NCBI RefSeq assembly: GCF_056712565.1
Contig: NZ_CM160072.1
Strand: one strand, 5' to 3'
DNA length: 64,000 nucleotides
Every line of letters starts with the position of its first letter. Within the stretch, counting starts at the first letter, position 1. A program made the position numbers. Shown here one piece after another: positions 30,001 through 36,000 of the stretch.

Positions 30001-33000
30001 AAGGCTCCAGCCCCAAATGCGAGAGCGCTATACGCGCGCCTTTTTCTGCCGACAAGTGAGAAGGAATGAGATACGGTTTGATTGCAGGAGACATCTGGCA
30101 GGCTGCGAGCGCAGCAGCATAAGAAAGAAATCCATCCAGCAACACGGGTAAACCGCAGGAAGCAGCACCTAACATCACTCCAGCTATTCCGACCAAATCA
30201 AATCCACCCACTTTTGCCAGGACATCAACACCATCCTGAGGATTTGGTTGATTCAACGTAATCGCCCGACGCACAACATCAATTTTATTAGCCAGTTTAT
30301 CTGTCGGCAGGTTTGCGCCAATCCCAACCACTTCTTCAGGATCCCGGCCAGTGATTGTGCTGACTATTGCCGCTGCCGGTGTCGTGTTTGCCATCCCCAG
30401 TTCACCTACACCAAACAGCGTGACACCGTTTTTTGCCAGCTCCCGCGTATAACATATGACGTCCAAAAGCAACTTTTCAGCCTGACGGCGACTCATTGCC
30501 GGAGCTGAAGCAATATTGCCGCTACCTCGTGCGACACGCATGTTGATAAGCCCGGGGATAGGCTCAGCAGTATCAATACCAACATCAATTACGTGGACGT
30601 TAGCGCCCGCTTGTGCTGCCAGCACACACACGCCGGTTGTTCCACGGGTCATATTTTCAGCCTGTATGGCTGTCACTTCTTTTGGAGAAATAGCGACCCC
30701 TTCCTCCCAGACGCCGTGATCGGCACACATAACCAGTACTGCTTTTTTGCCCACATGCGGTATGCCATTCAACCCCGGCATTCCTGCCAGTTGTATGGCA
30801 AGCGCCTCCAGCTTTCCCAGGCTACCAACAGGTTTGAGTAACCCGTCAACATGCCGTTGTGCACGCGACATAGCGGCAGAATTGATGGCTGGGATCGTAT
30901 TCAGTAAATCGGCAAGTATTTGCATGTCACGTCTCTTTATAGCAGTGCCAGCAGGAAAACCAGTTCACCAAACTCTATGGCTGCTCCCAGCGTATCGCCC
31001 GTTTGCCCGCCCAGCGTACGTTTGAGAAGCTGACCGAGGATGAAAATCGCCACCATCGTCACCACCATAGCAGCCACACCATGCATACCCGGCAATAATA
31101 CGGCAGCAAAAATAGCGGCTAAGCCGAGTGTGACGCAGGTTTGTCGCCCATCAATTTTGCCAATGAACACATTGCCAAGCCCTTCTTCCCGCGCATAACG
31201 ATGACGATACATCAATAATGCGGCAGTCCCGCGGCTGACCGCACATGCTGCCGCCAGCGATGCAAGGATCGGTTCGCCACGCAGAGCCAACTCGCTTAAC
31301 ACCAGAATCTTTGCCAGTACCACAAAAATCAATGCCAGACCGCCGTGGGTGCCTAAACGGCTATCACGCATGATTTCCAACATGCGATCGCGGCTACGTG
31401 CAGAAAATACGCCATCACAGGTATCAGCGAGGCCGTCCAGATGGAATCCCCCGGTCATCAGCGCCAGCACAAGTACGCTAAACAGTGCCGCCAGTGGTAC
31501 GCCACACCATGCCTGCAGCACCATGAAGACCAGCCCGCTAATCGCGCCAAGCAATAATCCAATCAAAGGAAAAGTAATAATACCGCGAGAATAATGCTCG
31601 AAATCCAGTCCCTGGGACCAGCGACGCGGTACAGGCAGACGCGTAATAAATGAGAGCATCGCCCAAAATAATTTACTCATTTGATTTTTACTCCAATACC
31701 CGAAACCACCAGCCATACTTCATTTGCCGCAGCGGCCAACTGCTGATTTACCCGCCCGGCAATATCACGAAAATGTCGTGCCAGACGACTCTCCGGCACA
31801 ATCCCCATTCCCACTTCGTTAGTCACTAATACAACCTTTGCGGGGCAACGTTGGCAGGCAGCAATCAACGACTGAATCTCAGCATTAATCGCCTGTTCCA
31901 TCGCCTGATAATCCCATTCATCAGGGTCTTTATCGCCGCCATAATCAAACAACAGATTAGTCACCATTGTGGTAACGCATTCCAGCAACACAGCCTCATT
32001 CGGGTTAATGTCTGCATGAATTAATTCATCAAGATGTTGCCAGCGCTCCACTGTGCGCCAGTGCTCCGGGCGGCTTTGCCGATGATGTTCTATCCGTGCA
32101 GCCATCTCATCATCAAGGATTTGCGAGGTAGCGATATACAGAACCTGTGAAGAGTCCCCAATAAGCACCTCTGCGTGGCGACTCTTCCCGCTCCGTGCGC
32201 CTCCCGTCACCAAAATCATCATACCGACTCCTGATTCAAATGTATGATGGTATTCATTGAACAGAGCAATGGATCCCCCACCGTTGCTGACCGCAAAACA
32301 TTTACGCGATTAATACTGCGCGTAATATAATTAAAAATCCAGCATTCTCAATCCATTACGAAATAAGATGGCATTACGGAATAGCCAGACTTTCTCGTGT
32401 TAACGTCCGACAAAATGCGTCATTGACAGCGGTTTCTGTGGATTGACACATTTCATTCAGATAATGAATTAATGCTACTGCCGGACCAACCAGCAAACGG
32501 GCATTGTGTTCTGAAATCCAGGCTATTGATTCAACGTCAGCGACAGATCTGCGCTGTAAAAGAAGTTGTAAAACAACGCAATAAAATTATCCGGAATGGT
32601 GGCGACTATGCACTAGAACACCACAATTTCGCTCTCTCGGTAAGGCACTGTCACAGCATTCAACAGAATGTGACTTGCCAGATTTATTAGCGCCACCAGA
32701 TGTTTAACCGGGTAACCACGACCCAGTCGGGGATATATTCCATCTTCTCGCTGACATCATCAAGAATAAAAAGGTTTATCACACTCAGAGCAACGTTCTT
32801 CAGCAGGCGGGATAATTCTTCAACATTTAAAAGATGTGTTATTAAAGGCATACAAACTGGACGTATTGTATTTTCTTTTGGTGGTTGACCTAAGGTAGCA
32901 GTTTATCCTGATGCGCTGAGATTTCTGTAATATCTACGTCAACATTCTCCTCGAATAGAAAATGCAGCCTCGGCAAGTGATTCACATTTTTTAACAAAGC

Positions 33001-36000
33001 GTTGTTAGCGTGCCATTTTCAGAAGCTCTCCAAGAAAGCGAATTCTTTTCTCAAATTCTGCATTCTCAGACACAGCTTTCTACTCCATGGCAATGGCCCA
33101 AATACGAAGTTGCTCAGGATCATTAGTGGTGCTGAGAAGTTAAATAACCATGCGGAGTACCACTCGTCATCACGTATTTATATATCATGAAGCTATTGTT
33201 GTGTTTTGTACATCAGTAGATGTATTCTGATATACTCCTTTTTCTAGACATAACCTTTCACCTGCTTGCAAAGCTTCTGTGTTCTGACATTGCCAAATTG
33301 TTGCAATTCTGTATCCAGCCTTCTTTCAGTCATAGCTTCGGGCCGCGATAAGACTCACTGATCTGACCCTGATTCCTCTTGCAGACTTTATAGACCAATT
33401 AAAATGCAGTTTCTGCAGGTCAACGTCTGACCATCATTGTCATCACTCTGGCCATTAGAGTAACCTTCTGCATTCATCCTTTTGTAAAAAGTTTATGTCA
33501 GTATCAGCAATTAACCGGACCTGATACTGATATGAGTCTTACCGCATATACGGTCAATTTCAGCAATTAATTACATTATCCACGCCAAAGTGTTTGTCAT
33601 CGCAATGATGGTACCTTCTTTCAGACACCATTTTTTCAACTCCGTTTTCCACGGACCGCACTCTTATGTCAAGAGTGCGGTCCGTGGATACAACCAGAGA
33701 CCGACTGACACGAGTCAGAGGAAACGACGGATATGTTCAGTCGTAAAATATCTATCAAAAAACATGATTAAGGTCAAAAATGTTTGATATTTACAATTTA
33801 TGAAGATGACAATAATCACAGATACATGAGAACATAAATGATAATAATTATCATTACAGCAATCATTTGTACTTTGTATTAATGAGGGATGAAATGTTAT
33901 ATAATATACCTTGTCGAATTTATATCCTTTCCACTCTGTCATTATGCATTTCTGGGATAGTTTCTACTGCAACCGCAACTTCTTCAGAAACAAAAATCAG
34001 CAACGAAGAGACGCTCGTCGTGACCACGAATCGTTCGGCAAGCAACCTTTGGGAAAGCCCGGCGACTATACAGGTTATTGACCAACAAACATTGCAGAAC
34101 TCCACCAATGCCTCCATAGCCGATAATTTGCAGGACATCCCCGGAGTAGAGATAACAGACAACTCCTTGGCAGGCCGTAAACAAATCCGCATTCGTGGCG
34201 AAGCATCCTCCCGTGTTTTAATTCTCATTGATGGTCAGGAGGTAACTTATCAGCGCGCCGGAGATAATTATGGTGTGGGACTGTTGATAGATGAGTCTGC
34301 GCTGGAGCGTGTTGAGGTAGTGAAAGGTCCATATTCCGTACTGTACGGTTCACAGGCAATTGGCGGTATTGTTAACTTCATAACCAAAAAGGGAGGTGAC
34401 AAACTTGCATCTGGAGTTGTGAAAGCTGTTTATAATTCCGCAACAGCAGGCTGGGAAGAATCAATCGCGGTCCAGGGGAGCATCGGTGGATTTGATTATC
34501 GCATCAACGGTAGTTATTCTGATCAGGGCAATCGTGATACGCCGGATGGACGTCTGCCGAATACCAACTATCGTAACAATAGTCAGGGTGTATGGTTGGG
34601 TTATAACTCCGGAAACCATCGTTTTGGCCTCTCGCTTGATCGCTACAGACTCGCGACGCAAACTTACTATGAGGATCCAGACGGAAGCTATGAGGCATTT
34701 AGTGTCAAAATACCTAAACTTGAACGAGAGAAAGTTGGGGTATTCTATGACACAGACGTGGACGGTGACTATCTAAAAAAAATTCATTTCGACGCGTATG
34801 AGCAGACCATCCAGCGCCAATTTGCCAACGAAGTAAAAACGACACAGCCTGTTCCCAGTCCGATGATTCAGGCTCTGACCGTTCATAACAAGACTGACAC
34901 CCATGATAAGCAATACACTCAGGCGGTCACATTGCAGAGTCACTTTTCGCTGCCTGCTAATAATGAACTTGTTACGGTGCACAGTACAAACAAGACAGGG
35001 TCAGCCAAAGGTCCGGTGGCATGACCTCAAGCAAATCTCTGACCGGCTTCATTAATAAGGAAACACGAACTCGCTCCTATTATGAGTCAGAGCAAAGTAC
35101 AGTCTCACTATTCGCACAAAATGACTGGCGATTCGCCGATCACTGGACATGGACAATGGGAGTTCGCCAATACTGGCTTTCTTCAAAGTTGACGCGTGGT
35201 GACGGAGTATCATATACCGCAGGCATTATAAGCGATACCTCTCTTGCCAGAGAGTCTGCGAGTGATCACGAAATGGTAACATCTACAAGCCTGCGCTATT
35301 CAGGTTTCGATAACTTGGAGTTACGCGCTGCGTTCGCGCAAGGCTACGTATTTCCCACACTCTCCCAGCTTTTTATGCAGACATCTGCGGGCGGCAGTGT
35401 CACATACGGAAATCCTGATCTTAAGGCTGAACACTCCAATAACTTTGAATTAGGTGCACGATATAATGGTAATCAGTGGCTGATTGACAGCGCAGTTTAC
35501 TACTCAGAAGCTAAAGATTATATTGCAAGTCTGATCTGTGATGGCAGTATAGTTTGCAATGGTAACACCAACTCCTCCCGTAGTAGCTACTATTATTATG
35601 ACAATATTGATCGGGCAAAAACATGGGGACTGGAAATAAGCGCGGAATATAATGGCTGGGTTTTCTCGCCATATATCAGTGGCAATTTAATTCGTCGGCA
35701 ATATGAAACTTCAACATTAAAAACAACTAATACAGGAGAACCAGCGATAAACGGACGTATAGGGCTGAAACATACTCTTGTGATGGGTCAGGCCAACATA
35801 ATCTCTGATGTTTTTATTCGTGCTGCCTCTAGTGCAAAAGATGACAGTAACGGTACCGAAACAAATGTTCCGGGCTGGGCCACTCTCAACTTTGCAGTAA
35901 ATACAGAATTCGGTAACGAGGATCAGTACCGGATTAACCTAGCACTCAATAACCTGACAGACAAACGCTACCGTACAGCACATGAAACTATTCCTGCAGC

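Follow-up and report, generated by a model that had tools for sequence, protein, structure and literature searches.

We consider it very probable that the interval between cobU and the TonB-dependent receptor gene (positions 32223-33866 of the window, the whole 64,000-nucleotide E. coli stretch that was analysed) is a non-functional mosaic from successive insertions and deletions beside the cobUST operon, and that its perfect palindrome formed in a decaying pseudogene and has no present function. Essentially the whole interval consists of remnants, all on the minus strand, of IS66- and IS110/IS1111-family elements and, probably, of an IS4-family element and cbiP. Along that strand, from the receptor gene toward cobU, the order is an IS110/IS1111-family, an IS66-family, and an IS4-like piece and then the putative cbiP remnant. 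Only the two edges look functional, namely the cobUST promoter (32324-32351) and the Fur-controlled receptor promoter (33826-33858). The pseudogene content of the interval is already known from K-12, and the finding is real but ordinary. The features are as follows.

32324-32351, minus strand: promoter-like site TTGAGA-16-TATATT upstream of cobU (consensus scan, 10/12 matches)
32374-32517, minus strand: cobalamin biosynthesis gene, putative cbiP 3' remnant (RefSeq pseudogene, CFT073 and Nissle)
32526-32612, minus strand: yeeH, K-12 pseudogene (K-12 annotation and mapping)
32526-32714, minus strand: IS4-family transposase, internal fragment (RefSeq pseudogene by PGAP; weak NCBIfam match)
32619-33151, minus strand: yoeG, K-12 pseudogene (K-12 annotation and mapping)
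32708-33151, minus strand: IS66-family TnpC remnant, codons 1 to ~151, interrupted by stops and frameshifts; upper part of yoeG (tblastn/blastn)
33152-33266, minus strand: IS66-family spacer and last ~80 nt of tnpB (DNA-level match only)
33248-33519, minus strand: IS110/IS1111-family non-coding right end (RE) (match to the RE of the plasmid element L005; outer end decayed, position approximate)
33520-33678, minus strand: yoeH, K-12 pseudogene (K-12 annotation and mapping)
33520 to ~33692, minus strand: IS110/IS1111-family transposase, C-terminal ~55 codons with two in-frame stops (tblastn; includes yoeH)
33648-33688, no strand: perfect palindrome TCCACGGACCGCACTCTT / ATGTC / AAGAGTGCGGTCCGTGGA (inverted-repeat search)
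33826-33858, plus strand: promoter-like site and predicted Fur box of the TonB-dependent receptor gene (consensus scans)
33894-36041, plus strand: TonB-dependent haem receptor gene (hma; K-12 yoeA), frameshifted in the window (CFT073 annotation)

Composition and annotation of the interval

The GC content of the interval is 0.403, compared with 0.499 for the window and 0.517 for cobUST, and the last 200 bp 5' of the receptor gene have a GC content of 0.31. The sequence-only reading that the interval is AT-rich is therefore borne out (40% GC vs 50% window-wide). Its claim that the interval is ORF-free is literally true, as the largest ORFs overlapping 32223-33866 encode 75, 72, 65, and 62 aa and none exceeds 75 aa, yet three pseudogenes are annotated there in K-12. 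A six-frame Pfam scan of the interval's ORFs gave no match. The E. coli strains CFT073, Nissle, and UTI89 carry the interval with 100% identity, and its IS5-interrupted counterpart in E. coli K-12 shows 99% identity and carries the pseudogenes yeeH (b4639), yoeG (b4640), and yoeH (b4641). These have the same locus and sequence as in the window, on the cobU side of the 'CP4-44 cryptic prophage' and upstream of yoeA. K-12 differs from the window by IS5 at 32613-32616 and IS2 inside yoeA, both of which the window lacks.

The K-12 record gives the three pseudogenes no family assignment. By homology, yoeG appears to join an IS4-family piece to the N-terminus of IS66 TnpC, and yoeH is an IS110/IS1111-family C-terminus, followed by the element's non-coding right end. 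yoeH has already been described as a non-functional transposase pseudogene (PMC12363166); in the literature we found no description of the palindrome inside it. The option of decayed gene remnants had been right for essentially the whole interval.

Putative cbiP remnant and insertion-sequence remnants

RefSeq labels 32374-32517 as 'cobalamin biosynthesis protein, missing N-terminus' (CFT073/Nissle, locus 4152-4295). We take this remnant to be cbiP (cobyric acid synthase) by its position, as the gene preceding cobU in intact cob operons. It would span the last ~47 codons, and its 53-aa translation had no Pfam or NCBIfam match. The 189 nt at 32526-32714 are labelled by PGAP as 'IS4 family transposase, internal stop, missing N- and C-terminus', and the NCBIfam model NF033592 matches this fragment weakly (E 0.0039, 16 bits vs a cut-off of 115, profile positions 134-191).

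The IS66-family assignment is given by TnpC homology together with adjacent tnpB homology. The TnpC remnant matches the intact TnpC of plasmid pESBL3171-IncF (L006) at 47% over 152 aa (tblastn, E 8e-23), and the DNA matches at 70.8% over 571 nt (blastn, E 1e-72). Window positions 32715-33266 align to L006 3501-4071, where tnpC ends at 3946 and tnpB occupies 3989-4369. At the protein level, tblastn gave no TnpB or TnpA match in the remnant, and TnpA, both terminal repeats, and the greater part of TnpB could not be found. The piece is an IS66-family element that lacks its left part and the bulk of tnpC and borders directly on the IS110-like end. The IS66 part and the adjoining IS110-like end are matched at 60-80% by 347 plasmids.

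The IS110/IS1111 family comprises DEDD transposases guided by a bridge or seek RNA; a long right end and subterminal repeats are typical of the IS1111 subgroup, with the guide RNA 3' of the transposase. The surviving piece in the window is the element's 3' ~440 nt, consisting of ~55 codons and a ~270-nt right end. The reference was L005, an intact IS110-family element of plasmid pRHB15-C23_2 with a 339-aa transposase (RefSeq 'IS110 family transposase'). Its residues 285-337 align to 33678-33520 (tblastn, 51% identity, E 7e-9), a span that is exactly yoeH, and the right end matches L005 3848-4143 with 68% identity over 300 nt (E 1e-21). The window shares with IS110/IS1111 elements both the C-terminal transposase homology and a homologous, structured non-coding end of ~270 nt adjoining the gene on its 3' side. 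Three more database fragments of the family match the transposase remnant at 51-55%. A stem-loop at the transposase stop codon is conserved (GTCAGTATCAG...CTGATACTGAC, 33495-33533), with the pattern TCAGTATCAGG-N5-TTAAT-N-GCTGATAC common to the right end and the intact relative. The right end was aligned four ways with L005, L010, and the Serratia remnant L008, and the consensus fold contains a few compensatory pairs.

The remnant is not a complete IS110/IS1111-family element: there are stops at two positions, and it has lost ~280 codons, with them the catalytic N-terminal domain, as well as the left end, so that only the last ~16% of the gene and the right end survive. Intact L005 has 13-bp subterminal inverted repeats (ATGAACGCATCCC / GGGATGCGTTCAT), and GGGATGCGTTCAT has decayed in the window to about 12/22 similarity. 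Because of the stops in the frame, the decayed subterminal repeat, and the missing left end, the piece cannot be an active element. We found no intact member of its own lineage, the nearest relatives being at 51-55% in protein and ~68% in DNA, and no relative of the 3' piece in the 80-95% identity band among E. coli genomes.

Structure of the palindrome

The palindrome had been read as a perfect hairpin with a 17-bp stem and a 6-nt loop. The perfect hairpin stands and its size is corrected: the arms (33648-33665 and 33671-33688) are 18 nt each and 100% complementary, 11 of the pairs are G-C, and the loop has 5 nt. No other perfect short-loop inverted repeat in the window is as long, the runner-up having 13 bp, and the longest inverted repeats in 30 Markov-1 simulated windows were of 8-11 bp. 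The single-stranded DNA fold has an energy of -24.2 kcal/mol (z = -10.8 vs shuffles). The simulations and the fold z-score indicate that the palindrome is not a chance feature.

Rho-independent terminators and REP/BIME sequences are, like the window palindrome, GC-rich stem-loops in non-coding DNA, whereas the window palindrome sits in a pseudogene coding remnant. A Rho-independent terminator was rejected, for the GC-rich stem-loop is present but the U-tract is absent on both strands. The stem is followed by ATACAACCAGAG on the plus strand and by AAACGGAGTTGAAAAAA (also given as AAACGGAGTTG) on the minus strand; the earlier remark on a missing T-run is correct for either strand, and a terminator scan finds nothing there. 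REP/BIME-type dispersed palindromes occur in hundreds of copies, compared with a single locus per genome here, and were ruled out. An IS terminal inverted repeat was also rejected, as only 5 nt separate the arms and the C-terminal coding remnant of a single transposase gene contains both. Clear homology to an IS or gene remnant that explained the palindrome as such a terminal repeat had been named as what would refute the earlier reading. The IS homology exists and the terminal-repeat identity does not, since the palindrome sits at the 5' edge of the transposase remnant. A structured RNA gained no support, as the Rfam 15 scan of the interval returned nothing at the gathering threshold and two matches at chance level (E 0.3 and 0.53).

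One sub-threshold Rfam match was between the palindrome and a plant microRNA model.

Distribution of the palindrome

Of 5426 complete E. coli genomes, 2755 carry the palindrome, at one chromosomal locus among the matches listed, and about half of the genomes lack it. The median was 2 'places' per genome; in the records mapped locally, the second is the same palindrome on the opposite strand. Viral contigs contained no copies. The sequence is identical in K-12, O157, BL21, and B2 strains and perfectly conserved across phylogroups A, B1, B2, D, and E. Neutrality at ~1% divergence predicts such identity, yet the identity is compatible with selection too, and the comparison has low power.

A 57-nt palindrome query was matched at 95-99% by 440 genomes, among them ZH063, in which one arm has an uncompensated G-to-A change. 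The palindrome is mutated in ST131-type strains. Strain KE51 has IS2 in the loop and an intact receptor gene, and in another lineage an IS3-family junction cuts the arm at 33681. A plasmid-borne receptor island has homology from 33716 onward only and lacks the palindrome. The suggested protein-binding palindrome is not supported by this distribution, with a single copy that many E. coli genomes lack or carry in mutated or IS-disrupted form, and we found no evidence of palindrome function.

Origin of the palindrome in the transposase remnant

The palindrome sits in the yoeH transposase remnant, at the 5' limit of recognisable homology. The minus strand there reads Y-P-R-T-A-L-L-T-stop-E-C-G-P-W, compared with Y-L-R-T-[LFIHGARAA]-A-L-L-T-K-E-P-G-P-W in the relative. 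The window codons are GCA CTC TTG ACA TAA GAG TGC GGT CCG TGG (A L L T stop E C G P W), and those of the intact relative are GCA TTA CTG ACC AAA GAA CCT GGG CCG TGG (A L L T K E P G P W). On the minus strand, the 3' arm (K-E-P-G-P-W) and the inner 8 nt of the 5' arm are colinear with the codons of related transposases. The outer 5' arm aligns about equally to the I-H-G or the Y-L-R-T codon block, and a pure inverted copy is possible; from this outer arm to the A-L-L codons, 10 nt (I-H-G alignment) or 27 nt (Y-L-R-T alignment) are missing in the window. The equivalent segments in L005 and in the Serratia remnant L008 fold no better than shuffles (z +0.67 and +0.63). L005 does have a quasi-palindrome, since its fold keeps TTATTCATGG paired to CCGTGGATAA in that same outer register.

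These comparisons suggest that the perfect palindrome probably arose in the decaying pseudogene through template-switch "correction". The ancestral transposase gene would have had only a weak quasi-palindrome at the site. On or after gene inactivation, at least one intramolecular template switch would have removed an asymmetric 10-27 nt and rewritten mismatches, leaving two arms that are exactly complementary. Native-looking sequence makes up the inner 5' arm and the outer 3' arm, and the inner 3' and outer 5' arms seem to have been rewritten; as neither arm would be purely donor or copy, more than one switch, or a complex one, would be needed. Because there is no close intact relative, the ancestral state of the arms is extrapolated from a distant one. 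Template switching preferentially turns imperfect into perfect inverted repeats, as documented in E. coli, and such correction accounts for the excess of perfect short inverted repeats in the non-coding DNA of this species (PMC5941160, PMC7202029). Quasipalindrome correction shares its outcome with the window, that is, a perfect repeat from an imperfect one, clustered substitutions, and the loss of asymmetric bases. However, experimentally characterised events usually alter a few bases in one step, whereas the window would have lost ~10-27 nt with several substitutions in both arms. Neutral evolution of the region, with a divergence of only ~1% among E. coli lineages there, is the likely reason why the palindrome persists.

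A one-step fold-back (snap-back) inverted duplication seems unlikely; it belongs to the same class of template switches and is hard to tell apart from the correction preferred here. The duplication would have occurred at the breakpoint that deleted the 5' four-fifths of the IS110-family element: the broken end would pair at the native GCACTCTT/AAGAGTGC, copy ~10 nt of its own strand, and join the DNA on the 5' side of the receptor gene. On its outer side (33688), the 5' arm does end at the 5' limit of IS homology (33678-33692), and the outer 10 nt of that arm are the exact reverse complement of the native G-P-W codons, with no unambiguous homologue in relatives. The plasmid receptor island, which shares sequence from 33716 only, places a junction within ~30 nt of the palindrome. 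However, a fold-back requires a pre-existing perfect 8-bp inner palindrome, where the intact relative has 3/8 complementary positions, and copying must halt after exactly 10 nt. The outer 5' arm also resembles native codons (TAT-CCA-CGG-ACC vs TAT-CTG-CGA-ACC, 9/12).

Selection for a functional element is extremely improbable. Such an element might work as RNA, its stem blocking or stabilising transcripts of the minus strand that come from the receptor's divergent promoter region and so insulating cobUST, or as DNA, with a dimeric regulator binding the palindrome. The stem does have very high stability, with z-scores of -5.0 (minus) and -6.6 (plus) in a 201-nt RNA context. Genomic SELEX lists minus-strand RpoD promoters upstream of yoeH and yoeG in K-12 (PMC3946193), so the palindrome is probably transcribed. 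The identity among K-12, O157, BL21, and B2 strains would also fit selection, but ~1% neutral divergence already predicts it. About half of E. coli genomes do without the palindrome, as does the plasmid receptor island; the ZH063 change is uncompensated, and the receptor gene of KE51 is intact despite IS2 in the loop. There is no T-run on either strand, no significant Rfam match, and no second genomic copy to suggest a regulon. The palindrome is upstream of the receptor promoter and Fur box and is therefore not in the receptor mRNA.

We also think it quite improbable that the palindrome is a species-wide fixed quasi-palindrome 'correction' in a dead transposase that is now a structural hot spot. 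Its 41 bp contain the sites of two independent events of the IS3 family: IS2 lies exactly in the loop, and an IS3-like junction interrupts the arm. Related IS110-family elements also include three independent copies, truncated or internally deleted, whose breaks fall within ~20 nt of the same codons. In a stronger version, the kept 3' module (transposase tail and structured right-end RNA) may be semi-autonomous or domesticated by analogy with the ssr9-'tnp module of ISPpu9 in Pseudomonas putida, where a transposase 3' fragment and a downstream small-RNA region likewise stand alone (PMC12288879). The ISPpu9 modules are bounded by A'/B' boxes and excised by a resident transposase, whereas no such boxes were identified in the window.

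Promoter-like sites at the edges of the interval

On the cobU side, the hexamers of the promoter-like site are identical to those of the constitutive RpoD promoter of cobUST in the list of Shimada et al. 2014 (PMC3946193). On the receptor side, the predicted Fur box at 33840-33858 matches the 19-bp consensus at 16/19 positions and is the only such match in the window (0.03 expected by chance); it is overlapped by the promoter-like ATGAGA-17-TATCAT at 33826-33854. More than one Fur-box-like site had been reported at this end. The site at 33840-33858 is upheld, and a second at ~33805 is weak, with about 11/19 by eye. The receptor gene is intact in CFT073 (715 aa). In the window, a 1-bp deletion (CC to C) at ~34975 relative to CFT073 splits it into ORFs at 33867-35024 and 35021-36040.

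Insertion sequence remnants between cobU and the receptor gene

CFT073, Nissle 1917, UTI89, and numerous further B2 strains carry the interval at window 32223-33866 with 100% identity, and at least part of it was matched in 5403 of 5426 complete E. coli genomes. K-12 has the same DNA at 99% identity, with IS5 inserted at window 32613-32616, and three K-12 pseudogenes map to it. The sequence-only reading had described the interval as ORF-free and AT-rich, and our measurements agree: the longest ORF is at most 75 aa, and the GC content is 0.40, compared with 0.50 across the window. 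All of the interval is accounted for by remnants of IS66 and IS110/IS1111 elements, of a probable IS4 element, and of a cobalamin gene, together with two promoters. The order on the plus strand is the cobUST promoter, the cobalamin-gene (presumably cbiP) remnant, the probable IS4 fragment, the IS66 remnant, the IS110/IS1111 remnant, and about 200 bp of very AT-rich receptor promoter. In B2 strains, 32715-33893 is without any PGAP annotation.

Features of the interval and its borders (window coordinates)
Ends at 32222, minus strand: cobU, left neighbour of the interval
32351-32324: cobUST promoter TTGAGA-16-TATATT, near-consensus hexamers; identical hexamers in genomic SELEX (PMC3946193)
32374-32517: cobalamin biosynthesis gene without its N-terminus, RefSeq pseudogene fragment in B2 strains
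32526-32612: yeeH, K-12 pseudogene, by K-12 mapping
32526-32714: internal fragment of an IS4-family transposase, RefSeq pseudogene fragment in B2 strains
32619-33151: yoeG, K-12 pseudogene, by K-12 mapping
33520-33678: yoeH, K-12 pseudogene, by K-12 mapping
Starts at 33894, plus strand: TonB-dependent receptor gene (K-12 yoeA), an intact 715-aa gene in the CFT073 annotation

A sensitive DNA search returned 347 plasmid records that match 32709-33552 at 60-80% identity and adjoin IS66- and IS110-family genes; two of them were taken as references. On the minus strand, window 33151-32708 aligns with codons 1-151 of TnpC from the intact IS66-family element of plasmid pESBL3171-IncF (L006); the identity is 47% (E 8e-23), and this remnant contains several stops and frameshifts. 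At the DNA level the IS66 homology extends further, across the spacer and the final ~80 nt of tnpB, to ~33266; TnpA and TnpB were not found at the protein level. Residues 285-337 of the transposase from the intact IS110-family element of plasmid pRHB15-C23_2 (L005) align with 33678-33520, which is exactly yoeH, at 51% identity (E 7e-9). The ~270 nt 3' of the L005 transposase stop codon align with 33519-33266 at 68% identity. With its 13-bp subterminal inverted repeats and its long right end, L005 shows the layout of the IS1111 subgroup, in which a guide (bridge/seek) RNA lies 3' of the transposase.

The consensus fold of the right end, made from the four available sequences, contains a few compensatory pairs, which with n = 4 are only suggestive of a structured RNA. 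In the right end (window 33240-33530, minus strand), one predicted helix at columns 156-181 of alignment A3 differs in the window copy at three consecutive pairs, each with both bases changed. These changes (CG to UA, UA to CG, and CG to UA in the alignment with three relatives) hint that the right end formerly encoded a structured, bridge/seek-RNA-like transcript. As for insertion sites, the IS110-family element of L005 (~3830 and ~5256) lies within an IS66 tnpC gene, and the relative in L010 (~3525), an internally deleted copy from a Logan assembly, lies just upstream of an IS2-like orfA start. The DNA beside the right end is alike in L005 and L010, AGAGCAGATGAAG and AGAACAGATGATT; this likeness suggests that insertion is targeted to a specific sequence, the behaviour expected of RNA-guided IS110-family elements.

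The locus is already known as K-12 pseudogenes, and yoeH is described as a non-functional transposase pseudogene (PMC12363166). To this the analysis adds family assignments, IS66 and probable IS4 for yeeH/yoeG and IS110/IS1111 with its right end for yoeH. They allow a cleaner annotation in which yoeG is a probable IS4 fragment plus the N-terminus of IS66 TnpC and yoeH is an IS110/IS1111-family C-terminus plus right end. The left boundary of the K-12 'cryptic prophage CP4-44' (NC_000913.3 position 2066020) corresponds to window 32478, inside the cobalamin-gene remnant at 32374-32517, which we take to be cbiP. A prophage attachment site at the interval was rejected for this position of the boundary, which matches no recognisable element end and looks arbitrary. 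A six-frame Pfam scan of the interval with stops masked found no family, and Pfam and NCBIfam searches of four reconstructed fragments gave a weak IS4 match only. A structured RNA had also been considered; a Rfam scan of 31500-34500 at E <= 1 returned two chance-level matches only.

A perfect hairpin within the transposase remnant

The inverted repeat at 33648-33688, first read as a 17-bp stem with a 6-nt loop, is indeed perfect; its true geometry is an 18-bp stem and a 5-nt loop, the earlier reading being the same object one pair shorter. No other perfect short-loop inverted repeat in the window is as long, the next having 13 bp, and the maxima of 30 simulated windows were 8-11 bp. Its minus-strand codons can be set beside the equivalent segment of L005.

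Palindrome and L005 equivalent, with translations
Window, minus strand: TAT CCA CGG ACC GCA CTC TTG ACA TAA GAG TGC GGT CCG TGG
Window translation: Y P R T A L L T stop E C G P W
L005: TAT CTG CGA ACC [CTG TTT ATT CAT GGT GCA AGG GCG GCA] GCA TTA CTG ACC AAA GAA CCT GGG CCG TGG
L005 translation: Y L R T [L F I H G A R A A] A L L T K E P G P W

Along its length the 3' arm (33665-33648) corresponds colinearly to the K-E-P-G-P-W codons; it differs from L005 at 5 of 18 positions, in line with the ~30% background divergence. The A-L-L codons make up the inner 8 nt of the 5' arm. The outer 10 nt of this arm can be aligned either to the I-H-G codons, at the cost of a 10-nt gap that breaks the frame, or to the Y-L-R-T codons, at the cost of a 27-nt gap. 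The loop contains a stop codon. This stop codon and the codon colinearity indicate that the palindrome lies within dead coding sequence, where recognisable IS homology reaches its 5' limit. Homology to an IS had been anticipated as a possible explanation of the palindrome as a terminal repeat. The homology was found, and the terminal repeat was rejected because both arms lie 5 nt apart inside the coding remnant.

Several other identities were also set aside. A terminator was rejected for want of a T-run, none following the stem on either strand, as noted in the sequence-only reading. A REP-like repeat was rejected because the hairpin is single copy. The hairpin was likewise rejected as part of the receptor mRNA, since both the receptor promoter and the Fur box lie downstream of it. 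Of the Fur-box-like sites proposed there, one is a 16/19 Fur box at 33840-33858 that overlaps a promoter-like site; the window contains no other such match, and 0.03 would be expected by chance. A 23-codon ORF just 3' of the hairpin (33631-33560, minus strand, GGAG 8 nt upstream) is an out-of-frame reading of the transposase remnant. The hairpin pattern had no match in viral contigs, and phage genomes gave only 28-31-nt chance matches to the hairpin region. Plasmids gave only near-identical copies of the E. coli locus, apparently chromosome-derived, and the plasmid-borne receptor island, whose shared sequence begins at 33716.

Origin of the palindrome

The equivalent segments of L005 and of an independent remnant in Serratia marcescens MSU97 (L008) fold no better than shuffles (z +0.67 and +0.63); the window hairpin segment has z -10.8. 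The L005 fold pairs TTATTCATGG with CCGTGGATAA in the same outer register, which indicates a weak quasi-palindrome inherent in these codons, with an asymmetric and mostly non-complementary interior. The palindrome belongs to the decayed yoeH sequence and is absent from related elements, a point that the analysis adds to the existing annotation. No closer intact relative was found: E. coli genomes gave nothing in the 80-95% identity band, a word-indexed protein search gave no candidate, and an exhaustive HMMER search yielded nothing beyond L005-type fragments at 51-55% identity. A scan of 100,044 species representatives with the conserved stop-codon stem-loop pattern found only the MSU97 remnant. 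The window, K-12, and CFT073 all contain the pattern, yet no Escherichia representative matched, so that the segment is presumably missing or variant in the E. coli representative genome.

The simplest and most likely reading of the hairpin is template switching in a decaying gene. The ancestral transposase gene would have carried an imperfect inverted repeat. After selection on the gene was lost, intramolecular template switching during replication may have removed the asymmetric segment, and the same process could have rewritten the mismatches until the arms were exactly complementary. Template switching is well established in E. coli and has been put forward as the cause of the excess and conservation of perfect short inverted repeats in the non-coding DNA of this species (PMC7202029, PMC5941160). 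If confirmed here with a close intact relative, it would provide a tidy natural case of palindrome perfection, of modest interest for work on mutation mechanisms. In a close variant, one fold-back would have taken place at the breakpoint of the deletion that took away the remainder of the element. In its favour, the outer arm end coincides with the homology boundary; against it, the inner arms have poor native complementarity in L005. We consider this variant the less likely of the two closely similar readings.

The palindrome could also act as a structural hot spot, or the 3' IS module could persist as an RNA module, but we consider this quite improbable. The 41-bp palindrome contains two independent IS3-family events (IS2 in the loop and an IS3-like junction at 33681), among about seven events noted in a non-systematic sample. 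Three independent damaged copies of related IS110-family elements break within ~20 nt of the …Y-L-R-T-L-F-I-H-G… codons, at the base of the quasi-palindrome: the yoeH remnant (window ~33690), L008 (~4053), and the internally deleted L010 (~3058). The database fragments P0004 and P0005 break elsewhere, and the clustering in the three copies may be due to ascertainment.

Strain variation and present state

The hairpin was present in 2755 of the 5426 genomes, always at the same locus. In 440 genomes the 57-nt hairpin query matched at 95-99%; one of these, ZH063, has an uncompensated G-to-A change in one arm. In strain KE51, IS2 sits precisely within the loop, accompanied by a 5-bp duplication (TGTCA), and the downstream receptor gene is intact. 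In strains 07_3986 and 2018-11-3CC, an IS3-family junction lies in the right arm at 33681 and the receptor gene is lost. The IS events within the palindrome are at window 33666-33681 (2532/3863 in locus L012, 6459 in L004, and 2542 in L013). The hairpin is identical in K-12, O157, BL21, and B2 strains, as neutral evolution predicts at ~1% divergence over 41 nt. No U-tract follows it, and its Rfam match is not significant. SELEX promoters are listed upstream of yoeH and yoeG (PMC3946193), which makes minus-strand transcription through the hairpin plausible. We found nothing that points to a present function of the hairpin.

The hairpin finding is real but ordinary, and its biological weight is small, the interval being a recognised accumulation of junk DNA that borders the cobUST operon and the so-called CP4-44 region. 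For genome scans it carries a caution: a perfect hairpin that is statistically extreme can arise as a by-product of mutation in decaying DNA, without being a regulatory element.

Downstream, the receptor gene (33894-36041) has a 1-bp deletion at window 34970-34980, GTTACCGGTGC to GTTACGGTGC, the sole difference from CFT073 over 9.6 kb. It splits the gene, intact at 715 aa in CFT073 and Nissle, into ORFs at 33867-35024 and 35021-36040, and is either a true pseudogenisation in the window strain or a sequencing error. The whole-window inverted-repeat scan also revealed an imperfect palindrome at 43774-43977, unrelated to the hairpin, with 101-nt arms that are 78% complementary and 2 nt apart.
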